DNA of 64,000 nucleotides from an uncultured Bacteroidota bacterium (GTDB taxonomy: Bacteria > Bacteroidota > Bacteroidia > UKL13-3). Below, piece by piece: positions 3,231-64,000 of the stretch. Location: positions 4,103-68,102 of the forward strand of contig CAISCU010000006.1 in NCBI GenBank assembly GCA_903883965.1, in the 5' to 3' direction. Numbering within the stretch: position 1 is the first letter of the stretch; every line of letters begins with the position of its first letter. A model generated the notes under the pieces. It searched no databases. It was not told the origin of the DNA and saw only the letters and a list, made by a program, of their open reading frames with translations. Made by a program: the position numbers and the translations under genes.

Positions 3231-4083
3231 AGCTGTAGAAACCCTTTCCGGTTTTTCGGCCATGCTGACCGGCATCTACTTTTTGTTGTTGTATTCTGCT
3301 TGGCCTGAACTTGCTATCTTGGTGAAAAAGTTGGTACATGCTACTGGTAACCGAAAAGTTGGTATCTACTCCAATTAAATCCATTAACTTGAAGGGTCCC
3401 ATTTTAAACCCACTAGCTTCCAACAGTTCATCCATGTCTTCATAAGTAGCAATGTTTTCTTCTAAGGCTTTTAAACTTTCAACATAAAAATGACGGGCAA
3501 CCCTGTTAACAATAAACCCTGGAGCATCTTTTGCCATGACACAGGTTTTACCCATACCATTGATTAATTCTTTGCACAATAAGGCAATTTGTGGATTGGT
3601 GGCAACTCCTGCAATGATTTCTACCAATTTCATTACTGGTGCAGGGTTAAAAAAGTGAATGCCCAAAACCCTTTCTGGGTGCGGAATTTGAGCTGCTATT
3701 TGGGTCATTGGTATAGATGAGGTATTGCTTGCCAGTATGCAAGATGGGCCATTGATTTCGGCCATTTGCTTGAAAAAACTGTGCTTGATTTCGAGTTTTT
3801 CTATGATGGCTTCAATAACCAACTCAGCTTTTACTTGTAAAATATCTTCAGTGAATACAATTTGACTAAATGCTTTTTGACTTGCTTCTGCACTGATTTT
3901 TCCTTTTTCAACCAGTTTGTCAAAACCTTTTTCTATACTTTGTTTGGCTTTTGTAAGCATGTGGGGGTTGAGGTCAAACAAAATTACCTTGTAACCCGCT
4001 TGCAGGCAAACTTGTGCAATACCTGTTCCCATAGTGCCAGCACCAGCTATTCCAATGGTTTGAATACGCGATAAATCAATCAT
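3223..4083 (-). CDS. hbd: 3-hydroxybutyryl-CoA / 3-hydroxyacyl-CoA dehydrogenase
   Basis: N-terminal Rossmann motif IGIAGAGTMGTGIA; family-typical core (ASNTSS, HFFNP). Confidence 0.8.
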   Translation of the reverse strand: MIDLSRIQTIGIAGAGTMGTGIAQVCLQAGYKVILFDLNPHMLTKAKQSIEKGFDKLVEKGKISAEASQKAFSQIVFTEDILQVKAELVIEAIIEKLEIKHSFFKQMAEINGPSCILASNTSSIPMTQIAAQIPHPERVLGIHFFNPAPVMKLVEIIAGVATNPQIALLCKELINGMGKTCVMAKDAPGFIVNRVARHFYVESLKALEENIATYEDMDELLEASGFKMGPFKLMDLIGVDTNFSVTSSMYQLFHQDSKFRPSRIQQQKVDAGQHGRKTGKGFYSYE

Positions 4084-4209
4084 GTGTGAACAAATTTAAC
4101 ATGCAATAGGCGTATATGCGAATGTTTCTTTACAAATCGAACAAAAATTTGACAGTTTAAATGATTGAGTTGTTTGAGAAAGCACTAATTTTGTAGAAAT
4201 AATTGACAA

Positions 4210-4536
4210 ATGATTACCGTTACAGAAAAAGCCAAAAATCAGATTTTCAACCTGATGCAGACTTCTGGCTACTCCGACAAACATTTTTTAAGGGTTGGGG
4301 TTGACAGCGGAGGCTGTTCTGGTTTGTCTTATAAGTTAGATTTTGATGATTTGGTGAAGGATGGAGATGAAGTGATTGAATTTGAGGGAGTTAAAGTGGT
4401 TACAGATAAAAAAAGTGTGTTGTATTTGTTTGGAACCGAACTGGATTTCTCTGACGGTTTAAACGGAAAAGGATTTACTTTCAACAATCCAAATGCCACA
4501 CGCACATGTAGTTGCGGTGAAAGTTTCGCAGTTTGA
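4210..4536 (+). CDS. erpA: Fe-S cluster insertion protein, HesB/IscA/ErpA family
   Basis: 108 aa; GGCSG motif and C-terminal CSCGESF. Confidence 0.85.
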   Translation: MITVTEKAKNQIFNLMQTSGYSDKHFLRVGVDSGGCSGLSYKLDFDDLVKDGDEVIEFEGVKVVTDKKSVLYLFGTELDFSDGLNGKGFTFNNPNATRTCSCGESFAV

Positions 4537-4578
4537 GGATAAATTTTATTTTGAGATTTGGAATTCAAATCTATTCAC

Positions 4579-4586
4579 TATATTTG
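4579..4586 (+). promoter_or_regulatory. Bacteroidetes sigma-A -7 box TATATTTG (TAnnTTTG) upstream of rpsT
   Basis: Matches TAnnTTTG about 48 nt upstream of the rpsT ATG. Confidence 0.3.
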
Positions 4587-4633
4587 CATCCCTTAATTGA
4601 GAACAATAAAGGATAATTTGATTACTAAAGCAT

Positions 4634-4942
4634 ATGGCAAACCATAAATCAGCACAAAAAAGAATTCGTAACAGCGCAACTAAGCGTTTACGCAATCGTT
4701 ACCAAGCAAAAACAACTCGTACACTTTCTAAGCGTTTGCGTTTGTCAACCGTTAAAAGTGAAGCTGAGAACTTATTAAAAGAAGTAAGTGCAATGCTTGA
4801 TAAATTAGCAAAAAGAAGCATCATCCATAAAAACAAAGCAGCTAACCAAAAATCAAAATTGGCTAAAGTTGTAAATAAAATTGGAACTGCTGCCGCTGTG
4901 ATTGAAAAGAAAAAAACCAGCCCTAAAAAAGCTAAAGCATAA
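4634..4942 (+). CDS. rpsT: 30S ribosomal protein S20
   Basis: MANHKSAQKRIR N-terminus; basic 102-aa protein. Confidence 0.9.
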   Translation: MANHKSAQKRIRNSATKRLRNRYQAKTTRTLSKRLRLSTVKSEAENLLKEVSAMLDKLAKRSIIHKNKAANQKSKLAKVVNKIGTAAAVIEKKKTSPKKAKA

Positions 4943-4962
4943 TTCAAGCAAAACATATTTTT

Positions 4963-4993
4963 AAGGCTTTCCTGAAAAGGAAAGCCTTTTTTC
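4963..4993 (+). terminator. Rho-independent terminator after rpsT
   Basis: AAGGCTTTCC-TGAAA-AGGAAAGCCTT followed by a T-run. Confidence 0.6.
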
Positions 4994-5026
4994 ATGCCTT
5001 TTTTTGTAGGTATGAAAAACCTACCC

Positions 5027-5716
5027 ATGTTCCAATCAAAGGGAATTAAGTCTTTATCGGTTGAAGACAGACCCCGCGAAAAACTCATAGATAAAGGCCG
5101 CTCTAGCCTTACCAATACAGAGTTGTTAGCCATCATTATAGGTGCAGGAAATGCACATGCCAGCGCCATTGATTTATCTAATCAATTGCTACAAATGGCC
5201 AATTACAACTTGAACGAGTTGGCTCAATTTACCATTCAGGATTACCTAAAAATTAAAGGAATTGGACAAGTAAAGGCCATTGCTTTGGTAGCTGCTTTTG
5301 AAATTGGTAGAAGAAAAATAGATTCAGCCGTACTACAGAAGCCAATAGTTTCCAATAGTAGAGAGGCGTATAACCAGCTAGCGGGTTTGATGTCGGACCT
5401 GAAACATGAGCAATTTTGGGTATTGTATTTGAACCGTGCAGGTAAGTTGCTTTCAAAAGTAAAAATCAGTGAAGGGGGCACTGCTGGTACAGTCGTAGAT
5501 CCTAAATTGGTGTTTTCTCAGGCTATTAATTTATTGGCAAGTACGCTTATTTTGGCGCATAACCATCCATCGGGGAATAATCGCCCAAGCGATGCAGACA
5601 TAGCTATTACCAAGAAAATAAAAGAAGGAGCTGTATTGCTTGATTTATTTGTTGCTGATCACATTATTATTTGTAACCAAGGATTTTACAGTTTTGCAGA
5701 TGAAGGGATGCTCTGA
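5027..5716 (+). CDS. radC: RadC-family JAB/MPN domain protein
   Basis: HhH region KIKGIGQVKAIA; JAMM motif HNHPSG..PS..D; start picked at MFQSKG (a longer ORF from 4994 is possible). Confidence 0.8.
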   Translation: MFQSKGIKSLSVEDRPREKLIDKGRSSLTNTELLAIIIGAGNAHASAIDLSNQLLQMANYNLNELAQFTIQDYLKIKGIGQVKAIALVAAFEIGRRKIDSAVLQKPIVSNSREAYNQLAGLMSDLKHEQFWVLYLNRAGKLLSKVKISEGGTAGTVVDPKLVFSQAINLLASTLILAHNHPSGNNRPSDADIAITKKIKEGAVLLDLFVADHIIICNQGFYSFADEGML

Positions 5717-5722
5717 TTTAAA

Positions 5723-6994
5723 TTAGCGGTATAAAGGAAATTGGTGCATCAATGCATTCACCTCTTGTTTTACTTGTTGGTGAATTTTTTCATCCTCAGG
5801 GTTCATCAACACACGGTCTATCAATGAAACAACAGTTTCCATATCTGCTTGTAACAACCCTCTTGTTGTAATGGCTGATGTACCAATTCTAATGCCTGAA
5901 GTTACAAATGGAGATTTGTCATCAAATGGAACCATGTTTTTATTGATGGTGATGTCTGCTTTAATGAGTGCGTTTTCAGCAGCTTTTCCACTTATTCCTT
6001 TGTTACGGAGGTCTATCAACATCAAATGATTGTCTGTACCACCCGAAATGAGCTCATAACCCAATTGCATAAATGCTGCAGCCATACTTTGAGCGTTCAA
6101 TTGAACTTGTTTGATATATGCTGTATAATCTGGGCTGAGGGCCTCTCCAAATGCAACTGCTTTTGATGCAATGACATGTTCGAGTGGTCCACCTTGTGTG
6201 CCTGGAAATACAGCTCCATCTAACATAGCCGACATCATTTTTAAATCACCTTTTGGTGTTTTGTGTCCCCAAGGATTTTCAAAATCTTTACCCATCATGA
6301 TTATTCCACCTCTTGGACCTCTCAAAGTTTTATGGGTGGTACTGGTAACAATATGACAATGTGGAATGGGGTCGTTTAACAATTTCCCTACAATTAAACC
6401 TGCAGGGTGAGAAATATCGGCTAATAAGATTGCACCCACGCTGTCTGCAATGGCTCTTAACCTCGCATAATCCCAGTCTCTACTATAGGCAGATGCACCA
6501 CAGATTATCATTTTTGGCTGTTCTTGTGCAGCTTTTTGTGCAACTTTATCCCAGTCTATTAAACCTGTTTCTTTTTCTACTCCATAAAAGCTAGGGCTGT
6601 ATAGTTTACCTGAAAAATTTACAGGAGAACCATGGGTCAAGTGTCCACCATGAGACAAATCAAAACCTAAAATTTTATCACCTGGGTTTAAGCAAGCCAA
6701 CATCACCGCTGCATTGGCTTGAGCGCCACTGTGCGGCTGAACATTTGCCCATACAGCTCCGAACATTTTCTTTAAGCGATCAATGGCAATGTTTTCTACC
6801 ACATCTACAACTTCACATCCGCCATAGTATCTTTTTCCTGGTAAGCCTTCTGCGTATTTGTTGGTAAGCACACTACCCATGGCTTCCATAACTTGTTTAC
6901 TCACAAAATTTTCTGAAGCAATCAATTCCAAACCTGTTTCTTGTCTGTGTAATTCTTCCTGAATCAATTTAAAAATTTCTGTATCTCTTGTCAT
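5723..6994 (-). CDS. glyA: Serine hydroxymethyltransferase
   Basis: 423 aa with canonical SHMT sequence throughout. Confidence 0.95.
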
Positions 6995-7144
6995 AAATCA
7001 AGTATTAGTCTTGCAAGTTATTTGAACTTCATTAAACCCAAAAGCTTTTTTATGAATAAATTTCAGCTAACTGTATAAATTTAAATACCATTTAAAAAAA
7101 AGACTTTATACCTTGCAGTACAATCCAAACATTTTCAAAAAATC

Positions 7145-52825: not shown

Positions 52826-53084
52826 GTTTAAATTGTAGTGTCTTCCGCTCAGTAAATTGAGGCTACAAGCAGATAAAAAAATCCTGCACTCACTATGAAT
52901 GCAAGAAAATGTTGGGGTTTCATTTTCATTGGTTATTCAAATTTACATACAAGATAGGGTCTATTATACAACAGTGCAAATAAATTTGAACCTGTATCAA
53001 TGCTCCCAAAAGTGTATAAAAAGTGATTGTGCTTTTTATACTTTCCTATAATACCAATGTCAATTATTATTTGCTCATCAATAT

Positions 53085-53510
53085 TTAAATGCCAATATGT
53101 TCAACTACAAATGCTTTGCAGTATTCTTTAATTTGTTCGCGAACAGCCCTGAATTGTGCAGCAATTTCTGCTTCGGTACCAATGGCTTTGGCAGGGTCTG
53201 GAAAATTGTAGTGAAATTTTTGGGCTTGGCTTGGAAAATAAGGGCAACGTTCGTTGGCATTGTCACAAACGGTTATTACAAAATCAAATGGAATGTTTGT
53301 GTATTCATTGACATTGTTTGAAGTATGATGCGTAATGTCTATACCATCTTCTTGCATGGTGGCAATGGCTCTTGGGTTTACTCCGTGTGTTTCAATACCG
53401 GCACTATAAATATGGGTCAGGTCTTTGGCAAAATGTCTTAAATAGGCCTCTGCAATTTGGCTCCTGCAACTATTGCCTGTACAAAGTACCAATAAGTTTT
53501 TCTTTTCCAT
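53085..53510 (-). CDS. arsC: Arsenate reductase, LMW-PTP family (thioredoxin-coupled)
   Basis: CTGNSCRS P-loop; downstream Cys pair ...VCDNANERCPYF. Confidence 0.85.
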   Translation of the reverse strand: MEKKNLLVLCTGNSCRSQIAEAYLRHFAKDLTHIYSAGIETHGVNPRAIATMQEDGIDITHHTSNNVNEYTNIPFDFVITVCDNANERCPYFPSQAQKFHYNFPDPAKAIGTEAEIAAQFRAVREQIKEYCKAFVVEHIGI

Positions 53511-53513
53511 GTT

Positions 53514-53639
53514 TTAAACAAACAACCAAATGATGTTGATGATACTAAATTTTGGGTCAAAGCCAAACCAGAATTGCAATGCAATCACCGATAAGGTAAT
53601 GATGATTGGCTTTTTATATTTGATGATAAATGTTTTCAT
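53514..53639 (-). CDS. 41-codon hydrophobic micro-ORF (MKTFIIKYKKPIIITLSVIALQFWFGFDPKFSIINIIWLFV), not in the ORF track
   Basis: ATG 3 nt after the upstream gene stop; own stop 3 nt before the arsC ATG; one predicted TM helix. Confidence 0.4.
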   Translation of the reverse strand: MKTFIIKYKKPIIITLSVIALQFWFGFDPKFSIINIIWLFV

Positions 53640-53642
53640 TAC

Positions 53643-54122
53643 TTAACAACAGTTAGAACCAGGCGTGCAACATGCAGCTGGGGTAGACGTGATTTCTGCT
53701 AAATTTATTTTTTGTTTTTGAGGATGTATGCCACATTGGTCTTCAGCCAAACAAGCTGTTTGTGTGTTTTGAAGTAAAAAGTAGTTGCCATCAAAAGCCA
53801 ATGCATATTTGCCAATTGTAGCAGATTGGTATTCCACCTCAATTTCTTGGTCTTCTATACCCAATATTTGTTCCGAAAGTTCAATAATTTGTAATAATTT
53901 ATTGGGCATAAGCTGGTGATTCATATCATTGGCAGACCATAATTGAAAATTTACTTTTTTTTCTGTTCGGATAGTGCCTCCACAATCTATGAAATATTTG
54001 CTAGCCATGCCCACTTCGGTAATGTGAAAATGAGCAGGTACAATTGAGCCGTCTTCTAGTTTAAATTTGAGCTCGTTAAGGGTTGGTAAAATGAGTTTTA
54101 CTTGTGACAGTTTCATGGGCAT
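53643..54122 (-). CDS. ars-operon-associated protein (DUF6428-like) with C-terminal vicinal Cys pairs (AACCTPGSNCC)
   Basis: Operon position between arsR and arsC; CC..CC C-terminus resembles the ArsD tail but lacks the ArsD N-terminal CC. Confidence 0.5.
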   Translation of the reverse strand: MPMKLSQVKLILPTLNELKFKLEDGSIVPAHFHITEVGMASKYFIDCGGTIRTEKKVNFQLWSANDMNHQLMPNKLLQIIELSEQILGIEDQEIEVEYQSATIGKYALAFDGNYFLLQNTQTACLAEDQCGIHPQKQKINLAEITSTPAACCTPGSNCC

Positions 54123-54131
54123 ATATTTTAA

Positions 54132-54464
54132 TTAACAACAGGTGTTTTTTTGTTTGGTTAATTTGCCAGCCAATTTTGTAAAATAGGCTTGAATTTTTTC
54201 GATGGCTTTTTCATCTATGCAATAACAAATGGCATTGCCTTCAATATTGCCTTTGATTAATCCAGCATTTTTTAATTCTTTTAGGTGCTGAGAAATGGTT
54301 GGTTGTGCCAAAGGCAATTCATTGACTATATCACTGCAAATGCATGAATCTACTTTTGAAAGGTAGTCCAATATGGCAACTCTGGCTGGGTGGCCAATGG
54401 CTTTTGCAATGTTTGCAATTTGGTTTTGTTTTACTGAAAAATGATCAGACTTAGTGGTGCCCAT
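54132..54464 (-). CDS. arsR: ArsR/SmtB-family metalloregulator
   Basis: CICSDIV metal site next to the HTH (PTISQHLKELKNAGLI). Confidence 0.85.
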   Translation of the reverse strand: MGTTKSDHFSVKQNQIANIAKAIGHPARVAILDYLSKVDSCICSDIVNELPLAQPTISQHLKELKNAGLIKGNIEGNAICYCIDEKAIEKIQAYFTKLAGKLTKQKNTCC

Positions 54465-54546: not shown

Positions 54547-57500
54547 CTATTTGGTGTAAATTTTTGCATTATTTCTGTACCCGTTTGTATTTAAATACCA
54601 ATCTGTATTTGTAGTGCCATTGCTCATTGCCCAGTTTAAGAACAACAAATAGCCTGTTGAGATATCTTGTTTTTCTTGCATGTAGGGAATTGAAGTAGAA
54701 ATGTCTAATGCCCAAGGCAAATTGTTTTTAGATTTATAGTACCTGCCCTGTTCTGGCATGCTGTTGTCATCGTCTGTGCCAAACCAATCATCATTCATTT
54801 TGTTGGTTGGAACCCTATTTTGTAAATGAAGTTCTTTGCTTCTAATTTGTAATGAATTGGCAGTGTCACCTATTATGATATATGGATTAAAAGCCGATTG
54901 AGGCAATTCACTAATGTTAACGGTTCCACCCGCTGGAGCCACCCCATTGTTTAAAAATTTCACCACAATTGAACTAGTATCATATGGGCTTTTAGGTGCG
55001 CTCATATAAGTATTCACGAAATTTCCATACCCATTTTCAGTAAGCACTTTGTAGATGTCATCAAAAACAATAATGTTGGCATAATCTTGACCACTTTCTG
55101 TGCCATTTAAGGCATTGCTTAACCAACTGGCACCACTTGCTTTTGAACCCGTTACGCTCGTTACTTTATTTGGAGCAATTCCATCCAATTGAAAAGCAAA
55201 GCCATTGTGAAGACCTGCACCCGTGCATCTTGCAACAAATGAATAGTTGATTTCTACTACTTGATTCAAGTTGTTTGTGACAGTATTGGATCTGTAATCA
55301 ACCACAACATCATTGAAGTCATAATCTGCAATGTTTGGCCATAAGTCTTCAAACATTAAGGTTCCATAGCCATCTGCTGGATAATAACTGTTAAATGCTT
55401 TATGAGGATCTTGAGGGTATTCATCCAAACAGTCATTGATGCCATCACTGTCTGCATCGGTATTACATGATCCAGAAATGGTCACTACAATGTAAGCCGT
55501 TGTACTTTGTCCGCCGGTATCATAAATTTTATAACCAATGCTTGCAGTGCCTTCGTAATTTGTAGCAGGAGTAAATTTCACAGAGTAATTTGGATTGATT
55601 GAAAAAGTTCCAACTAGGGTAGAGTCAGGTGCTGTACCGCCAATAAATTCAATTGATGACGCATTGAAAGCATAACTTCCAATTTGATCATTGGTTAATT
55701 GATTGATATTTACTGGTACGTTTAACTGCGTAAACGTAGTATCGTTAACGGCTGTAGGTGGTAAATTGCTGATGGTAATACTTTTGCTCATAGTGGCAGT
55801 TGTACAACCATTGTTTACATAATAATTGATGGTAGCTGTTCCGGGTGCGATACCTTTTACCACACCATTTGAATCAACAGTTGCAACGGCTGGATCGCTA
55901 CTGCTCCAAGTTCCGCCAGTAGTTGAGTCTGTGTAAGTAGTAGTGTAATTAGTGTACAAAGTATTTGCTCCTGTTACCGATGCAATAGAACCTCCTGAAT
56001 TATTAACAGTGAGTGTTTTATTTACTGTGGTAGAGCCACAAGCTGAACTGACAGTATAACTAATGGTAACTGTTCCTGTGTTCACACCGGTTACAATTCC
56101 AGAAGCATTTACAGTTGCAATGCTGTTGTTGCTACTACTCCAAGTACCACCTGTAGTTGCTGTGCTTAAAGTAATTGTACTACTATTACATACACTGTTC
56201 GAACCTGAAATTGGTTCAACATAAATTCCACCGCTGGGTGCCAATGACACTGTAAAGCTATTTGACACTGTTTTTTTGGTGGTGAACCAAGTATTCATTG
56301 TTCTTTGGTTTCCCGCGGGGTCCATCCAACTGTGCTGACCCGCAACGGTTGTAGAACCGCTAACTGGCGCTGTAGCCGGAGTACCTGTTAAACTTGTAGT
56401 TCCACCACTCAAGTTGTTATCATCCCAATACACGGTCATGGTTCCAATTCCGCTAGGTCTGACAATAGAAGCTAAATAGCCATTGGTGTGTTGTTCGGCA
56501 TCATAAACGGGTATATGGAGTGTTCCTACTTTGGTAGCTAGTTCAACTTTTAAATTGGCATTGTTAGATACAGTAGCGCCGAGTCCGTTGAGTCCGTCCC
56601 AAATAACACAATTGTTTCCTCCACTCACATAGGCTTCTAATACCCGGTCAACAGGATCGGTATAAATTCCATTGTTGTTTAAGTCTAACTTTAGTTCTGC
56701 TAGCGCATCTCCATTGATGGTAAAGTTCAAACAATAATTCCCTGGACAACCTGTTATGGAATTAAATGTGGCAGACCTATCACCCTTGGTTGCACTTGGG
56801 TATTCATCATTGTCGGGGTCGTTCAAGAATATTTTGAATTCAGGTCTATCGTTTGGATTGTTGGATCCAAAGTCTTTAGATTTCCTGTCTGTTACAATAT
56901 TTCCTGTATTACCAACCCCAGTTGAATTGGCAAAAATTCTAAAATAATATGGGCTCAAACCATTTAAGTCAACCTCTGTTACAACAGAGTCCTTTGAATA
57001 TACAAATAAGCTACCTACACATACATTCGGAGGGGTATAACCTCCAGTGTTAAATCCCCAATAGTACGACCACAATCTTCCTTTTTTAACATTGGTATTG
57101 CTGGTTCCATTGGCTACAGTTACATCGTAATATTTTAAAAATATTTCAGTAGTATTGGCTGTAGTATTAGAAGTGTTGAATTCTATATAGTAATCCCCGT
57201 TGTAACGAGTGGCTGCATTTGCATTTAAATCCAATTCGATTGGTAAATATCCTCCGGTATTTCCTGTTAAAGTTCTAGGTCCTGTGTTGGCTTCCGACCA
57301 GTTACTAATGTATCCGTTTCCAGAACTAGGAAGCAATGTAGGCCCTGCAACTACTGTACCATCTGGTCTTTTAATTCTATAATAAACGGTTTGGCTTGAA
57401 GTTGTTTTTTGAAAACCAACATAAATTTTTTCAGTGGTATAGTCTTTTACGTGGATGAACAAGCGGTCGTTCTGACTGGTGGCTGTCCAACCAGCAAATG

Positions 57501-57693
57501 TTGATGCAAATCCGCCCAAAGCCGAGCGGTTTACTTGAAGTTCAACATTGTTAATGGATGCAGATGGTGTCATTTCTTTTGTTCCTTCTGCTCTTGAAAT
57601 AACGGCATTTAAAAATAGAATAAACAAGCCCAAGAGCTTAGTATAGAATCGCGTATTTAAATGCATTTTAGAAGGTATAAAATTATATTTCAT
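54547..57693 (-). CDS. LruC-domain-like large surface protein with Ig-like (BIG2) domains and a TSP3-like D-x-D-x-D calcium motif
   Basis: DADSDGINDCLDEYPQDP plus FEDLWPNIADYDFNDVVVDY (LruC-type); two BIG2-like segments; no T9SS C-terminal domain. Confidence 0.55.
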   Translation of the reverse strand: MKYNFIPSKMHLNTRFYTKLLGLFILFLNAVISRAEGTKEMTPSASINNVELQVNRSALGGFASTFAGWTATSQNDRLFIHVKDYTTEKIYVGFQKTTSSQTVYYRIKRPDGTVVAGPTLLPSSGNGYISNWSEANTGPRTLTGNTGGYLPIELDLNANAATRYNGDYYIEFNTSNTTANTTEIFLKYYDVTVANGTSNTNVKKGRLWSYYWGFNTGGYTPPNVCVGSLFVYSKDSVVTEVDLNGLSPYYFRIFANSTGVGNTGNIVTDRKSKDFGSNNPNDRPEFKIFLNDPDNDEYPSATKGDRSATFNSITGCPGNYCLNFTINGDALAELKLDLNNNGIYTDPVDRVLEAYVSGGNNCVIWDGLNGLGATVSNNANLKVELATKVGTLHIPVYDAEQHTNGYLASIVRPSGIGTMTVYWDDNNLSGGTTSLTGTPATAPVSGSTTVAGQHSWMDPAGNQRTMNTWFTTKKTVSNSFTVSLAPSGGIYVEPISGSNSVCNSSTITLSTATTGGTWSSSNNSIATVNASGIVTGVNTGTVTISYTVSSACGSTTVNKTLTVNNSGGSIASVTGANTLYTNYTTTYTDSTTGGTWSSSDPAVATVDSNGVVKGIAPGTATINYYVNNGCTTATMSKSITISNLPPTAVNDTTFTQLNVPVNINQLTNDQIGSYAFNASSIEFIGGTAPDSTLVGTFSINPNYSVKFTPATNYEGTASIGYKIYDTGGQSTTAYIVVTISGSCNTDADSDGINDCLDEYPQDPHKAFNSYYPADGYGTLMFEDLWPNIADYDFNDVVVDYRSNTVTNNLNQVVEINYSFVARCTGAGLHNGFAFQLDGIAPNKVTSVTGSKASGASWLSNALNGTESGQDYANIIVFDDIYKVLTENGYGNFVNTYMSAPKSPYDTSSIVVKFLNNGVAPAGGTVNISELPQSAFNPYIIIGDTANSLQIRSKELHLQNRVPTNKMNDDWFGTDDDNSMPEQGRYYKSKNNLPWALDISTSIPYMQEKQDISTGYLLFLNWAMSNGTTNTDWYLNTNGYRNNAKIYTK

Positions 57694-57725: not shown

Positions 57726-58130
57726 TTAATTTAAATTGCTTTTGATGTGTATATTATCTGCTAAGGTAAACTTCTCTCTGTTCCCATTTAAATAAACATA
57801 AATGTTTTTGTATTTATTTTGAACAGTTAAGCTTGCCGAATAAGTATTTCCGGCTTTTACAATTGCCTTGTGAAACACCTCAGCATTTTCTCCTTGTATC
57901 AATAAAACACCTGTTTTGCTTGGGTTGATTTCAAAATGAACCGTATTGCTGGTTTGCCATTTAAAGTTTTCTGAAACACTCAACTCATTGGTCTTGCTTG
58001 GCTGCGTATGTTGTACTTGTTTTGGTTTAATTTGTTCCAAATCTCTTTTGCAAGATTGCAGCAGGGCTAAAACAGCAATTGTTGCCACTATTAATAAAGA
58101 CTTAAACTTGATTGAATTGAGCTTTTTCAT
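57726..58130 (-). CDS. Hypothetical lipoprotein, co-oriented downstream of the LruC-like gene
   Basis: Start picked at MKKLNS; lipobox LLQSC. Confidence 0.45.
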   Translation of the reverse strand: MKKLNSIKFKSLLIVATIAVLALLQSCKRDLEQIKPKQVQHTQPSKTNELSVSENFKWQTSNTVHFEINPSKTGVLLIQGENAEVFHKAIVKAGNTYSASLTVQNKYKNIYVYLNGNREKFTLADNIHIKSNLN

Positions 58131-58365
58131 TGAATTGAAATATTGTTCAACTCTACATACCAATTATTTATCCAAGCTGTTTTTCTTTTGTTTAAATAAT
58201 TGCAAAGTGCTGATAAATAATGCTTTGAGATTTTAAGATGAATGGCGTAATCACGGCCAGTAGTCCCAAAATGAAACAAAATACCATTTATGGAATGCCA
58301 TAAAATGATTGATGTGTTTGATGAATCATTTATCATAGTAAAAAATAATCATCAGCTTATCGTCT

Positions 58366-58713
58366 TTGTATAGTTCCCAAAAATTGACTTCAATTTTGGT
58401 AATAAATGATTGTTTGATTTATACAATGATTAAAATTTTAGACTTAAATGTTATTTTTCCGCGAGTTGTTGCATATAAATTTCTTGTAAACGCATTGGTA
58501 TCTGTATTAGTTGTTGTTTTAGGTGGTATGATGTGGGGGGTGTCTGGTATGTTTTTTTCTATTCCATTCTTAGCATTTTTAAAAGTGAGTTTCGATCATT
58601 ATCCTGGTCTTGAATTTTGGGGTAAATTATTGGGTATTCCAGAAAAAAGTCATTGCAAAACAAAGACTGATTTTGGCAAAATGAACCTTTGTTTAGGTCT
58701 CTGTCTCACTTAA
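58366..58713 (+). pseudogene. C-terminal remnant (about 65 aa) of an AI-2E/PerM-family transporter
   Basis: ...LVSVLVVVLGGMMWGVSGMFFSIPFLAFLKV... matches the conserved AI-2E C-terminus; the about 280 upstream residues are absent. Confidence 0.45.
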
Positions 58714-58804: not shown

Positions 58805-59354
58805 TTAAAATGGATGAATGAATTCCATTTCATAATGAAATACACAGCTTTTTATCAATGTCAATTTATCAGAATCTTTAAGGTATTCGAATAAATCTTT
58901 CATGAGATGAGGAATATTTTCATGAGGCGGAGCAATTTGTTCAACTTTTGTTCCATGAACAATTCCCATACCTTGTTTTTGTCTATTTTCCAGCACTTTT
59001 AATTAATCCATTCATTAACTGAAGATGTGCTTTAAGAAAACTTTTGTCTGAAGAGAATTTATATGCTTGTAAATTTTCATACACCTGAATGGCATTTAAA
59101 ACTTCCAATACATCTTTTTCAGGGCCAATGACTCTTTTGTTCTCAACCAAAGCAGTAATTTGCTTCTCGGTTAATGTATTGCCTTTAATTTGTAAAGATG
59201 AATGAATGGTTTTAATTCTATTCTGCTTGCGAAGTTGAGGCGTTTGCTTGCTCAAATAATTTGCATTTACTTCTCCATTTTTTTCAGAAATAGATCGTAT
59301 GAATTGTAGAATTTTGGGAGTAATATCATAAGGCGGCTTCATTGATAGCATCAT
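58805..59354 (-). pseudogene. Fic/DOC family gene, frameshifted (two overlapping frames) and truncated right after the HPF of the Fic motif
   Basis: Frames 58983..59354 and 58805..58996 together read a Fic N-terminal half ending ...FHYEMEFIHPF; the rest of HPFx(D/E)GNGR is missing. Confidence 0.6.
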
Positions 59355-59845: not shown

Positions 59846-60442
59846 TTAGGGCCAGTCAATTCCTAAAGTATAACCTGCTTTCTCATAAAAAGAAACCGAT
59901 AGCTCAATCAATTCCTTGCTTGTATGAAAAGCATCCGTTCCAATGTTAAAATCTGGTCTAATGGGGTTTTTATCAAGATCTCTTTCTAATGGTTTGCTAG
60001 GATATGAATGGCAGTCTATTATTATTGCTTTACCAAAGCTTTCTAACTGCTCGTTTACTGCCCTATTCAATTGCTGGTGGTGTTTCCAATAATAGGTATC
60101 TAGGATTCTTTGTTTTAATGCTGGGTTTACATTTCTGATAACTTCACCAACATCACTTTTCTCATACAATACGCCCATTCCAAACTGTGCCATCACTTCT
60201 TGTGTATCATCTGGGAATCTTTCGGGGTCACAAAATATTCTTGAAAATTCGGCCACAATCATCTCATCATCTTTTGATTCAAACAAATCGTCTGTATACC
60301 AATCCGTCAATTTTAAAATCTCTTTTTCAAGTATAGACGAATCTACCAAGTAACCTTCTGTTATTGGTATATGGGTTGATGCATGCGGGATGTGGAGGAT
60401 GAGTTTTTGCATAGGGGGGGTAAGATAGAAATGGATTTTCAA
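59846..60442 (-). CDS. N-formylglutamate amidohydrolase (FGase) family protein, short form (possibly C-terminally truncated)
   Basis: ILHIPHAST..IP and IIDCHSYP motifs; 198 aa, against about 230-290 aa typical for the family. Confidence 0.6.
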   Translation of the reverse strand: MKIHFYLTPPMQKLILHIPHASTHIPITEGYLVDSSILEKEILKLTDWYTDDLFESKDDEMIVAEFSRIFCDPERFPDDTQEVMAQFGMGVLYEKSDVGEVIRNVNPALKQRILDTYYWKHHQQLNRAVNEQLESFGKAIIIDCHSYPSKPLERDLDKNPIRPDFNIGTDAFHTSKELIELSVSFYEKAGYTLGIDWP

Positions 60443-60497: not shown

Positions 60498-62831
60498 TTA
60501 CTTCACTTTCACTTTCATTACTTCTGTTAAGGTTACTGCAAAAGGAATTCCAGCGGCTGTTACATGATTATTTTTTGCTTTTATTTCTTTGAATTTTTCT
60601 AATTCTTTAAAATTAAAACTTGCTCCTTTAAAATCATTGCATTCTTCTTTTTCTATTTCAATTACTAAATAATAGTCTTTAAGGTCGCCGGTTTTGTAAC
60701 CAATTAAGCTTGTGCCTTTATAAACTTTGGGTCCTTTCCTTTTTATTTTGAAAACTCTATTTGCGGTATCTTTTCCTGATTCTCTAAGTAGTAAATATTT
60801 TGCATTAACAACATTGTTTTCCAAACTTAACGACCCTTTGTCGTCATCCATCCTGAAATTATATTTCCCTTCTTTTTTGTACCAATCTATATTCGAACTA
60901 TTCTTGCAGTAGCCAACTAAAACAAATGTTTCATCTGGAATCAATTTTTCGTTTTTCGCTAAGTCTAAATATTCAGGCATTGGCTCGTTTAGAATATTTG
61001 TATCGTCCTTTTGATATTTGTGTATATCGTAAATTTTAACAGCAGTATGTTCTCTTTGAGAGGCTCTGTCAATAAAGTTTGCAATTACTTTTCTAATGAA
61101 AGTTTTTAATTGTTCTTTATCCTTATCGTCTTTATTGGGTTTAATTACAAAAGCACCTAAACCAGGTATCAATTCATGAAAGCCTCTAAATGGTTCATCC
61201 TTGCCTTCTCCAGGATATAAAACATAGGCTCCACCTGTTCTTCTAATTGCATCTTTATAGGCATGCATTTTCAGTAAGTCCTGATTTTTAACTGTTCCTT
61301 TCTTTACTTCCTCTTCTTCATCTTTTATGAGTTCCTTGTTTTCTTCTTCTGTCAACTCTTCGCCTTTAGATTTAGTAATTAATTTATAAAAATCTTTGAC
61401 TTTGTATTTTGCATCAAAATGAATGTGGGTTATTAATTCTGTCTTTTCAGCCTCTTTAGCTTCTTTTATTTCTTCAGGCCAAATAGATAAAGTAAAATCA
61501 GGCCGAAGGGTTGTAGTATAACTTCCTGCATTCGGAAAGGTTTTACCACCACCAAAAGAACGATTATAGGAGAACTGAATATTCAAATTTCTAGCGGTTG
61601 ATTTATAAACACCTTTCATTGCTATTGCCGTTCCTTGTTTTAAGTTAAGCGATAATTGTCCTTTGTCATATTGTATCAATTCTGCAATACTTTTTGGCTC
61701 AATCTCAAACACTTCTTTTAACAAGTCAAGTAGTGTAAAAAACAACCAATACTCGTATAGCGTGGCTATATCTTTTTTTCCAGCATCGTAAACATTGTCG
61801 CCACCATGCCAGATTAATTTGGCTGCTAAGTCAAATTTTAGCCAGGCATTTAAAACTTCTCTATAGCCGCTTTTTCTTTGAAGTACTGGGCTGTTTAGTT
61901 TTAAAGAGGTAGGTCTTGAAATTTCCTTAAAAAAAGATTGATTTAGTAAAGTAGATATTTTTGTTGCGAGCAGTCCTGATTCAAATTTTGCGGTCGAATA
62001 ATTTTCAAATTTCAATTCGCAATTTTCGCAGAAAAAAAGAAATTCTTCTAAAGCATGTTTAATAAAACGATTTTCGGATGTATCTATAGATTCTGTTTTT
62101 CTTGTACTATCTATTTTGGATGGAATAGAAGCTAATCCGAAATTCCTATTTAAAAAGTGATCACTACTTATTTCTATTCGCTTACTTTTGGCAACCAATT
62201 GTTTTATGTTTTTTTGATTAAATCTTTTTATTCTACGAATATCTTTTACATCATGTTCCTCTTCCCATTTGGTGGTAGGATTGGAAACTATTTTTTGTAT
62301 TGATTCTTCAAATTCTTGCGAGTCAATCAATGATTTTACAAAAGAAAATCGTTGATATAAAGTTTGTGGGTTCTTATTGAAATCAGTTTCAAAATGTTGA
62401 GTAATTGGTGAATCAATTTGCATGATTAAATCAGTGCATCTTTCAGTGATGTACTCAAGCATGTAGCGGTAATCTGTTCTATAATCAGACTTAACTGATT
62501 GAACCTCCAATTTAATTTTATAGGGTTTTAGCAGTTCTTCTATATGAATGATTTCTAAAGTTAAAGCTCCTACATAAGTATTGGGTGAAATAATTCCTAT
62601 ATGGTGCTTTCTGCTGTGAGCTTGCACGTAATCTGTCTTTTCAAAGGCATATTGGGTGTTTGAAAATTCATAATCATAAAAGTAACCTTCTTTAAGTTGA
62701 TAGCTACTTTCCCCTTCTTTATCTGCATCTATAACTTCAAATAACGTATCAGGTTTTTTAGCATCTATGGTTAGTGATAAACCTTTTTCTATAAAATCTA
62801 GTGGTATCTTTATGGAAGTTAATGATGTCAT
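60498..62831 (-). CDS. 777-aa multidomain predicted PD-(D/E)XK nuclease, McrC-like (DUF2357/DUF524-type)
   Basis: RPDFTL...HIHFDAKYK (PD...D-x-K), then KMHAYKDAI...GAYVLYP as in McrC-type cores; acidic linker; about 400-aa N-terminal and about 170-aa C-terminal domains unassigned. Confidence 0.5.
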   Translation of the reverse strand: MTSLTSIKIPLDFIEKGLSLTIDAKKPDTLFEVIDADKEGESSYQLKEGYFYDYEFSNTQYAFEKTDYVQAHSRKHHIGIISPNTYVGALTLEIIHIEELLKPYKIKLEVQSVKSDYRTDYRYMLEYITERCTDLIMQIDSPITQHFETDFNKNPQTLYQRFSFVKSLIDSQEFEESIQKIVSNPTTKWEEEHDVKDIRRIKRFNQKNIKQLVAKSKRIEISSDHFLNRNFGLASIPSKIDSTRKTESIDTSENRFIKHALEEFLFFCENCELKFENYSTAKFESGLLATKISTLLNQSFFKEISRPTSLKLNSPVLQRKSGYREVLNAWLKFDLAAKLIWHGGDNVYDAGKKDIATLYEYWLFFTLLDLLKEVFEIEPKSIAELIQYDKGQLSLNLKQGTAIAMKGVYKSTARNLNIQFSYNRSFGGGKTFPNAGSYTTTLRPDFTLSIWPEEIKEAKEAEKTELITHIHFDAKYKVKDFYKLITKSKGEELTEEENKELIKDEEEEVKKGTVKNQDLLKMHAYKDAIRRTGGAYVLYPGEGKDEPFRGFHELIPGLGAFVIKPNKDDKDKEQLKTFIRKVIANFIDRASQREHTAVKIYDIHKYQKDDTNILNEPMPEYLDLAKNEKLIPDETFVLVGYCKNSSNIDWYKKEGKYNFRMDDDKGSLSLENNVVNAKYLLLRESGKDTANRVFKIKRKGPKVYKGTSLIGYKTGDLKDYYLVIEIEKEECNDFKGASFNFKELEKFKEIKAKNNHVTAAGIPFAVTLTEVMKVKVK

Positions 62832-62836
62832 AAAGT

Positions 62837-63841
62837 CTAATTGTTTTTATTTTCAATTAGTTGTTGCAATTCTTTTTTACTTGGAAGAATCAATTCATAT
62901 TTACTTGCAAATACTTGGTTATTGTTTTCAGGTAAGGTAATTTCTACCAATGTGTCTTTTTTGTCTTTACATAGTATAATACCAATGGTTTTGTTTTCTT
63001 CTTCAAGTTTTACATATCTATCGTAGTAGTTTACATACATCTGCATCTGACCAAGATCTTGGTGTTTGAGCTTGCCAATTTTCAAATCAATGAGTACAAA
63101 ACATTTGAGCAAACGGTTATAAAATACCAAATCAACTCTATAGTGCTCCTCATCAAATGTAAATCGTTCTTGTCGACCAACAAACGTAAATCCTTTTCCC
63201 AATTCCAGAAGAAAATGCTCTAGTTTATTAATTAATTCTACCTCTAAGTCTGTTTCATTATATAAGTTTGATTCAGGCAGATTTAAAAATTCTAATATAT
63301 ATGGATCTTTAATGATATCACTTGCTGTTTCTACAATTTGTCCTTTTTTTGATAGTTCAATAACACCTTTTTTATCTTTACTCAACAACAATCTTTCATA
63401 TAGCGATGCATCAATTTGACGCTCAAGTTCCCTAACGGTCCAATTATTCTTTTCTATTTCAATTTCATAAAAACTGCGTTCTTCTTCATTGCTAATACGC
63501 ATTAAATGAAGATAATGAGACCATCCTATTGATTGCGAAAACGCTGTTTTCGCAATCTTATAAGTGATGTAGAATTTTCTTATGAGTTCTAGTTTTCTCT
63601 TGGAGAATCCTTTACCAAACTCCTTTGACAATTCATTGGAAAGTCTTTCTAATAAATAATCTCCGTAATTGGAGTAATGATTACCATCTTGCTCGTGTTC
63701 AACAATTCTTCTTCCAAGTTCATAATAAGTTTGAACCATTATTGAATTAACGGATTTGGTTACACCTAACTGAGCATCTTTTATTAATTGCTTAATTTGT
63801 GCTACAAACGAATTGGTTTTATCTTGAATTTCATTACTCAT
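62837..63841 (-). CDS. YhcG-family (DUF1016) PD-(D/E)XK nuclease
   Basis: N-terminal VQTYYELGRRIVE; C-terminal YRVDLVFYN..LKCFVLIDLKIGK nuclease core. Confidence 0.75.
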   Translation of the reverse strand: MSNEIQDKTNSFVAQIKQLIKDAQLGVTKSVNSIMVQTYYELGRRIVEHEQDGNHYSNYGDYLLERLSNELSKEFGKGFSKRKLELIRKFYITYKIAKTAFSQSIGWSHYLHLMRISNEEERSFYEIEIEKNNWTVRELERQIDASLYERLLLSKDKKGVIELSKKGQIVETASDIIKDPYILEFLNLPESNLYNETDLEVELINKLEHFLLELGKGFTFVGRQERFTFDEEHYRVDLVFYNRLLKCFVLIDLKIGKLKHQDLGQMQMYVNYYDRYVKLEEENKTIGIILCKDKKDTLVEITLPENNNQVFASKYELILPSKKELQQLIENKNN

Positions 63842-63846
63842 ACTAA

Positions 63847-64000
63847 TTATGCTTCAGCGTAACTGGCAAAACCATTTTCTACTGCGTTTTTATACATCCT
63901 ACAAATTTTTTCAAATGAAATTTTGTATTTGATATTATCATTTGCTGCAATTTGCACTTCAGTTAACTCATTGTTTACGAATTTATCTAAGTAATCTTCT
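63847..64000 (-). CDS. 3' end of an unidentified gene (C-terminus ...FEKICRMYKNAVENGFASYAEA), first gene of the same-strand operon
   Basis: Open frame runs to the window edge; stop 5 nt before the YhcG start. Confidence 0.4.
   Translation of the reverse strand, partial: EDYLDKFVNNELTEVQIAANDNIKYKISFEKICRMYKNAVENGFASYAEA

Follow-up and report, generated by a model that had tools for sequence, protein, structure and literature searches.

A probable NxD-clade McrBC-type restriction operon with an embedded YhcG gene in an uncultured Bacteroidota bacterium

Can a McrC-like nuclease be encoded without the AAA+ GTPase that should drive it? The question is raised by an open reading frame (ORF) near the end of a 64,000-nucleotide stretch of DNA, hereafter the window, from contig CAISCU010000006.1 of an uncultured Bacteroidota bacterium (assembly GCA_903883965.1). 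A first reading of the letters alone, here called the sequence-only reading, had described the product as a McrC-like nuclease without a partner GTPase in view and with unassigned N-terminal (about 400 residues) and C-terminal (about 170 residues) regions, the latter speculatively a reader of modified DNA. That McrC proteins need a McrB partner was correctly stated there. We report that a McrB-like gene lies across the window edge, upstream of an inserted YhcG gene, and we consider it very likely that the McrB-like, YhcG and McrC-like genes form a three-gene operon encoding a McrBC-type Type IV restriction system of the NxD clade, with YhcG embedded. Systems of this kind are not new, having already been catalogued by computation (Bell et al. 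2024, PMC11090510). The McrC-like family was not found by name in the literature searched. The operon and the parts of the McrC-like protein are as follows.

63847..64000, minus strand: 3' end of the McrB-like AAA+ (NxD-type) gene, with its last 50 codons and TAA stop (63847-63849); the rest lies beyond the edge
62837..63841, minus strand: YhcG/DUF1016 PD-(D/E)XK protein, 334 residues, with 5-nucleotide gaps on both sides
60498..62831, minus strand: McrC-like gene, ATG start, 777 residues plus stop, four-domain layout
62499..62831, minus strand: McrC-like residues 1-111, beta-rich N-terminal domain, from the secondary structure of the AlphaFold2 model
61842..62600, minus strand: McrC-like residues 78-330, DUF2357, the McrC N-terminal helical domain (Pfam PF09823)
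61203..61763, minus strand: McrC-like residues 357-543, PD-(D/E)XK nuclease domain PDDEXK_7, formerly DUF524 (Pfam PF04411)
61299..61361, minus strand: McrC-like residues 491-511, acidic Glu/Lys-rich insert inside the nuclease domain
60501..60998, minus strand: McrC-like residues 612-777, family-specific C-terminal domain with a structured core at 636-777

The frame at the window edge ends in ENGFASYAEA and a stop, the same C-terminus as that of the upstream protein in two related loci (L001 and L002). Its stop is separated by 5 nucleotides from the start of YhcG, the McrB-like gene lying upstream on the same strand. The remainder was found just past position 64000 on the same contig, so that the claim of no GTPase in view holds for the bulk of the gene but not for its last 50 codons and stop, which are inside the window. 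An identical McrC-like protein is encoded on the 69.5-kilobase (kb) contig that holds the window and in a second assembly (L001). On both assemblies the McrB-like protein upstream of YhcG has at least 415-466 residues and no precomputed Pfam match. The picture of a partner-less nuclease has therefore to be given up: the nuclease appeared to be without a motor because of the window edge and the inserted gene.

Several lines of evidence identify the upstream protein. In the window's organism and in a locus related at 82% (L002), the NTPase motifs are intact and read GLSGSGKT (Walker A), LDEMNLSH (Walker B) and IIGTVNIDETT. The last contains N187-x-D189-E190, invariant in an alignment of 25 homologs drawn from related loci and here realised as N-I-D-E. 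In Bell et al. 2024 (PMC11090510), the motif NxD, usually followed by E (or D), is the signature of a major branch of McrB GTPases, one still uncharacterised by experiment. Searched as a single sequence against the PDB, the protein matched E. coli McrB alone and weakly (E about 0.2-0.4), and Pfam AAA_5 stayed below threshold in the source organism's copy; in some relatives AAA_5 reached or exceeded the Pfam cut-off. With a profile of the 25 homologs, the top five PDB matches were all McrB GTPases, among them E. coli 6hz4 (E=2.1e-8), 6ut6 and 7vsr; the Thermococcus McrB matches were 6ut3 (E=1e-4) and then 6ut5. By its motifs and profile matches, the gene upstream of YhcG is one for a McrB-type AAA+ protein, which is the finding that the sequence-only reading had itself named as its refutation, in favour of a conventional McrBC system with an inserted gene. 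N-termini of the relatives carry MrcB_N (up to E=1.6e-29) and/or EVE (3e-12); MrcB_N is the domain by which E. coli McrB binds DNA with 5-methylcytosine (5mC). Pfam gave no match for the N-terminal type of the source organism's protein, whose gene is cut by the contig end. The McrB-like proteins (L001 3..1400, L002 7407..8912) also match the PADLOC candidate PDC-M26A in two stretches (E about 1e-50); no paper on PDC-M26 was found in the literature.

Each GTDB species, represented by one genome, was scanned for relatives. This yielded 257, and 80 loci (47-87% identity, almost all Bacteroidota) were kept for comparison. Gene order was called by tblastn and ORF calling. Upstream DNA was too short to judge in 3 of the 80, which left 77 loci. 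The McrB-like gene directly adjoins the McrC-like gene in 64 of these, with a gap of mostly 2-6 nucleotides and sometimes an overlap. YhcG stands between the two, as in the window, in 11 loci, and in 2 loci, one with a truncated McrC, a McrB-like gene was not detected. A McrB-like gene is thus found upstream on the same strand in 75/77 loci, and the divergence of the McrB-like proteins goes along with that of the McrC-like proteins (Spearman 0.63, p about 1e-8). Loci without a detectable McrB-like gene despite the presence of upstream DNA are L012 and L057 (the truncated McrC), and also L003. YhcG and McrC-like genes without a McrB-like gene were seen in L003 (6176..9994) and L012 (6957..7991). 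Upstream, L003 has instead a 122-residue ORF, a YhcG-like fragment and a Schlafen-group-3 helicase. Operon decay or an alternative motor could account for the arrangement in L003 and L012.

Regarding the genes around the operon in relatives, the commonest upstream neighbour is a C5 cytosine methyltransferase (12/58 loci), and histidine-kinase-type genes recur. In L002/L007, a Vsr endonuclease and a C5 DNA methyltransferase lie directly upstream of the McrB-like gene on the same strand (4852..7143), together with a 207-residue protein with a weak BsaWI-like match, also on that strand. A C5 methyltransferase beside a methylation-dependent system is an odd pairing, and a hint at a target other than the cognate 5mC. 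On the downstream side, the related loci showed no conserved gene. A sigma-70 scan of promoters and terminators found no terminators, and promoters at about the number expected from shuffled sequence, the sigma-70 model not being meaningful for Bacteroidota.

The McrC-like protein itself largely agrees with what had been read from the letters. The 777-residue ORF, the quoted motifs (RPDF at 443-446, FDAKYK at 472-477, KMHAYKDAI at 521-529, GAYVLYP at 534-540) and the acidic linker splitting the nuclease core were all found at 60498..62831, and the proposed McrC/DUF524-like core is borne out by PDDEXK_7 (Pfam, E=4e-27, residues 357-543). The catalytic residues D445/D473/K475 are intact; D473 and K475 do not vary among 90 homologs, and at least 90% of these keep D445. 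The acidic insert EELTEEENKELIKDEEEEVKK (491-511) follows the D-x-K strand, ahead of the next helix, and is predicted to be helical with low confidence. The N-terminal region, in turn, is not without assignment, as residues 78-330 match DUF2357 over its full length (Pfam, E=2.7e-39, profile positions 1-251/251). Bell et al. 2024 (PMC11090510) describe DUF2357 as the N-terminal domain of McrC, which makes contact with the McrB GTPase and activates it. Beyond DUF2357 and PDDEXK_7, no other McrC-type model matched at E<=0.1, and neither PADLOC nor NCBIfam holds a model for the 777-residue protein. NucT, which came up in the scans of these two collections, was rejected as its identity, the E-value of 0.034 being at chance level.

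A full-length AlphaFold2 model built with the 90 homologs was of moderate quality (predicted local distance difference test score, pLDDT, 68.5). Residues 1-111 form about 10 strands (pLDDT about 80), and residues 115-340 are helical and hold most of the DUF2357 match. The nuclease region is alpha/beta, poorly modelled near the acidic insert and followed by a long helix (570-605), and residues 636-777 fold into a compact alpha/beta domain. In a Foldseek search of the PDB, rank 1 was E. coli McrC (6ut6_G, E 5.5e-4, probability 0.99) and rank 2 an integrative B. subtilis YdjA-YdiS model (9a5m, E 2.5e-3, probability 0.66), followed by VcaM4I, an EVE-HNH enzyme, and by dozens of YTH domains. Neither the single sequence nor the family profile found McrC among the PDB sequences, so that the link to McrC in the PDB came from the fold search only. 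McrC homologs that pair with NxD GTPases, also outside the CoCoNuT systems, are described as having an N-terminal Ig-like beta-sandwich (PMC11090510), to which the modelled residues 1-111 probably correspond.

What is the C-terminal domain? Here the earlier statement stands as far as sequence models go, since no Pfam, NCBIfam or PADLOC model covers the C-terminal ~165 residues. An exhaustive phmmer search with residues 600-777 against 1.84 billion cluster representatives returned only 236 proteins, all of them C-termini (or fragments) of McrC-like family members of ~750-820 residues, and the domain is present in 80/80 related loci. One family member, P0190 (579 residues), is high in guanine plus cytosine (GC) and N-terminally truncated and takes the YTH-like domain beyond low-GC Bacteroidota; its last ~100 residues resemble a frameshifted or low-complexity tail. 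Modelled alone, the domain reached pLDDT 80 and a predicted template modelling score (pTM) of 0.73, with the order b1-a1-b2-a2-b3..b6-a3, a beta-barrel with flanking helices as in YTH/EVE. The top 50 Foldseek matches in the PDB were almost all YTH domains (E from 4.5e-4, probability about 1.0), with template modelling (TM) scores of mostly 0.4-0.54 (a few partial alignments lower) and root-mean-square deviations (rmsd) of 5-7 A; the others were MJECL36 (2p5d), VcaM4I (6yex) and the Leishmania EVE-like 2ar1. Structure prediction and Foldseek, which the sequence-only reading had proposed, thus led from the full model to E. coli McrC and from the C-terminal domain to YTH, and its speculation about a reader of modified DNA gains support at the level of the predicted fold by matches to the YTH/EVE superfamily. 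McrC homologs fused to EVE-superfamily domains are also on record (Bell et al. 2024, PMC11090510).

Conservation points the same way. In 84 diverse copies, W650, Y657, N658, R660, Y712 and Y721 are 96-100% conserved and the aromatics W650, Y657, Y712 and Y721 98-100%, whereas the domain as such is far more variable (38-97% identity in the close family) than the whole McrC-like protein (68-98%). A near-invariant aromatic/polar set in an otherwise variable domain is the pattern expected for a ligand pocket. Sequence comparisons were negative: Pfam YTH/EVE gave no match at E<=1 to 34 diverse copies, the domain profile found nothing among the PDB sequences, and hhalign did not link it to the EVE domains of partner McrB proteins (only two template sequences). 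The BFVD viral library gave weak matches only, a DUF3850 protein among them. On the predicted structure, we think it reasonably probable that the domain is a YTH-like modified-base reader. It is possible, but somewhat unlikely, that it has no more than the PUA-like barrel topology in common with such readers and serves as a structural, dimerisation or DNA-clamping module. Its lack of sequence similarity to the YTH/EVE families, the TM scores of only about 0.45-0.54 and the rmsd of 5-7 A would suit such a module, but the fold matches are homogeneous and fall into one superfamily, and the residues kept nearly invariant over the 84 copies are mostly aromatic or polar, in the manner of a pocket.

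The gene between the two core genes encodes a YhcG protein with the Pfam domains DUF1016_N (5.2e-40) and YhcG_C (7.2e-58). It matches the PADLOC candidate PDC-S02 (E=2.9e-138); PADLOC scores the YhcG family as a single-gene candidate. Its recurrence at exactly the junction of the McrB-like and McrC-like genes, in 11/77 loci including the distant L045 (McrC 51% identical), is notable. Its divergence does not track that of McrC (Spearman rho 0.23, p 0.07), and the nearest McrC relatives of the YhcG-bearing L010 and L045 are without YhcG. In L051, a YhcG 77% identical to the window copy lies at 3964..4950 on the opposite strand, about 3 kb upstream of McrB and McrC genes that are not themselves separated by a YhcG, which is consistent with YhcG moving about within defence neighbourhoods. 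Sporadic presence and the lack of co-divergence with McrC argue for a passenger that is gained, lost or exchanged at the junction and is not part of the core.

YhcG might instead be an integral third subunit, adding a second cleavage or recognition activity dependent on the McrB-like and McrC-like proteins. The operon-like 5-nucleotide gaps on either side speak for this, as does the same junction in 11 loci, with L045 among relatives that are without YhcG; DUF1016 proteins are reported to co-occur with restriction genes (PMC3424549), and YhcG is itself a PADLOC candidate, PDC-S02. A core subunit, however, should hardly be missing from 64/75 McrB-McrC pairs, diverge independently of McrC, occur elsewhere and on the other strand as in L051, or be scored by PADLOC as a single-gene candidate. 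We regard a third subunit as unlikely, and YhcG looks like a sporadically acquired accessory or passenger nuclease. YhcG/DUF1016 has no mention in the main text of Bell et al. 2024 (PMC11090510), a search for DUF1016 with McrBC turned up only PD-(D/E)XK survey papers, and one for YhcG with defence found nothing relevant.

How would the McrBC-type system work? That a complex forms, which nucleotide it uses, which substrate and modification it recognises, and any role of YhcG are inferred here by analogy with E. coli and Thermococcus McrBC. McrB-like AAA+ hexamers would bind foreign modified DNA by a variable N-terminal reader, MrcB_N/EVE in relatives. The DUF2357 domain of the McrC-like protein would enter the hexamer and stimulate NTP hydrolysis, and the PD-(D/E)XK domain (D445/D473/K475) would then cleave the DNA. 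The C-terminal YTH-like domain, constant across the family, may provide a second step on the nuclease subunit, recognising a modified or flipped base. The NxD(E) motif, the beta-rich McrC N-terminus and the C5-methyltransferase and histidine-kinase neighbours fit the non-CoCoNuT part of the NxD clade.

Could the target be modified RNA, as proposed for CoCoNuTs, with the YTH-like domain reading methylated RNA? YTH domains are readers of N6-methyladenosine (m6A) in RNA, and the best structural matches are YTH-RNA complexes. The NxD clade moreover includes the CoCoNuTs, which are predicted to target RNA (PMC11090510). Against this, neither HEPN nor any other RNase was seen at the loci, coiled-coil fusions and a DUF2357 insert are likewise missing, and the PD-(D/E)XK site is intact. 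The partner McrB-like proteins bear MrcB_N, which binds 5mC-DNA in E. coli McrB, and EVE, and the commonest upstream neighbour is a C5 DNA methyltransferase. YTH/EVE domains can also bind modified DNA: the entries 9szp and 7l4y are of YTH with m6A DNA, and VcaM4I is a DNA enzyme. An RNA target is in our view quite improbable.

A number of points weigh against the McrBC assignment as a whole or in part. The McrB-like gene is incomplete in the assembly, its N-terminus appearing to run off the contig end, and that the operon is fully intact in the source organism cannot be shown with a gene that is cut there. In the full-length McrC-like model, pLDDT is below 50 over much of residues 476-559 in the nuclease core, and the Foldseek match to McrC (6ut6_G) has a low TM of 0.31 on the target. 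The YTH-like assignment is one of predicted structure at a TM of about 0.5, without sequence-level support. No NxD-clade McrBC has been characterised experimentally (PMC11090510), which makes GTP dependence and the DNA target extrapolations. A McrC-like protein acting as a stand-alone nuclease, without an AAA+ GTPase and targeted by its own extra domains, is nevertheless most improbable: L012, L057 and also L003 lack a detectable McrB-like gene although upstream DNA is present, and the protein bears its own putative reader domain, but a McrB-like gene stands in the same operon here and in 75/77 loci, DUF2357 is the McrB-activating domain (PMC11090510), and McrB and McrC co-diverge, the exception L057 being a truncated McrC.

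An extension of the McrBC reading is offered as tentative and rather unlikely. The nuclease subunit, and not the motor, would bear the constant primary sensor of modification, and the junction of the two core genes would repeatedly capture YhcG to give a functional two-nuclease system. The sensor may then be the sequence-orphan YTH-like domain, with its invariant aromatic pocket, in every member, while the N-terminal readers of McrB are freely swapped. If true, target licensing in NxD-type McrBC would depart from the paradigm of E. coli, where reading the modification is left to McrB alone.

Further genes near the operon complete the picture. Both neighbours named by the sequence-only reading are present, YhcG at 62837..63841 and an FGase-like gene on the other side of the McrC-like gene.

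59846..60442, minus strand: FGase-family (N-formylglutamate amidohydrolase-like) gene, 55 nucleotides downstream of the McrC-like gene

The FGase-like gene was rejected as a partner of the system, as it is absent from all 80 related loci and was seen only in the locus of the source organism. Two overlapping ORFs at 58805..59354 on the minus strand (123 and 63 residues) resemble a broken Fic/DOC gene and are probably a pseudogene; the second matches Pfam Fic (E=4e-8) with the profile covered only to 77/93 and stops after 'HPF' inside the catalytic motif. On the plus strand, a 115-residue ORF at 58366..58713 carries an AI-2E_transport (PF01594) annotation in the gene calls of the contig and falls far short of such transporters. 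GC content in the 58-59.8 kb stretch is low (0.29-0.34). With the short AI-2E ORF and the Fic remnant, this makes the stretch look like decaying DNA beside the restriction operon. Farther away, a 145-residue ORF with a signal-peptide-like N-terminus (57726..58163) precedes a predicted surface protein of 1048 residues with Big_2, Big_9 and DUF4842 domains (54547..57693, minus strand). An arsenic-resistance-like cluster (53084..54464, minus strand) consists of an ArsR-type HTH_5 regulator (54132..54464), a DUF6428 protein (53643..54122) and a gene of the low-molecular-weight phosphatase/arsenate-reductase type (about 53084..53509 by the gene calls of the contig).

As a representative of the NxD McrBC clade the system is clean, compact and abundant, and it offers a good entry point for experiments. 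The McrC-like family comprises at least 236 clusters at 50% identity and occurs in 257 stretches of GTDB species genomes. Three traits are testable: the shortened GTPase signature motif, the reader-like McrC domain without a library model, and the coming and going of YhcG at one junction. Since the McrC-like protein has no PADLOC model, the McrB-like protein matches only PDC-M26A and YhcG only PDC-S02, censuses of defence systems may under-count such systems.

Among known systems, B. subtilis YdiS/YdjA (9a5m), which we take to be BsuMI restriction subunits of McrB/McrC type, gave the second-best and weak PDB fold match of the full-length model. VcaM4I (6yex), also among the fold matches, is likewise a fusion of a PUA-like/EVE-superfamily domain to a nuclease. 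It is, however, a single-chain HNH enzyme without an NTPase, whereas here the putative reader sits on a PD-(D/E)XK McrC that is paired with an AAA+ motor, and its sequence shows no detectable resemblance to the Pfam families EVE and YTH. With CoCoNuT (CnuB/CnuC) the system shares an NxD-type McrB GTPase, a predicted YTH-like domain and, probably, a beta-sandwich on its McrC homolog. Here, however, McrC and not McrB bears the YTH-like domain, the PD-(D/E)XK site is intact, and HEPN and CnuH/CnuE are absent from the conserved neighbours. As to the long coiled coils of CoCoNuT, which are fused to McrB, inserted in DUF2357 or encoded separately as CnuA, we saw neither an insert in DUF2357 (1-251/251 over 253 residues) nor fusions, no dedicated coiled-coil prediction having been made. 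The McrB-like N-termini of relatives are MrcB_N, EVE or without a Pfam match, and the only extra nuclease is the sporadic YhcG.

Closer is the non-CoCoNuT part of the NxD clade, described as methyltransferase-associated and often with two-component genes nearby, a fuller description being deferred to a later publication (PMC11090510). Common features are a Glu after the NxD motif, an N-terminus of McrC rich in beta strands and an extra domain fused to McrC, the EVE superfamily being the one named in the paper; the relatives share C5 methyltransferase and histidine-kinase neighbours. This placement is by features, not by a tree, and the accessions and organisms that we tried are not listed in the supplementary text of Bell et al. 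2024 that was searched. E. coli K-12 McrBC (6hz4, 6ut6, 7vsr) has the same two-gene core with McrB upstream, the same DUF2357 and PD-(D/E)XK McrC with a Walker A/B AAA+ partner and, in relatives of the present system, the same MrcB_N (DUF3578) reader. The signature is NxxD in E. coli and NxD(E) here. With 777 residues, the McrC-like protein is over twice as long as the 339 residues of 6ut6_G, and compared to E. coli McrC it adds a beta-rich N-terminal domain, an acidic insert in the nuclease and the predicted YTH-like C-terminal domain, with YhcG standing between the two genes.

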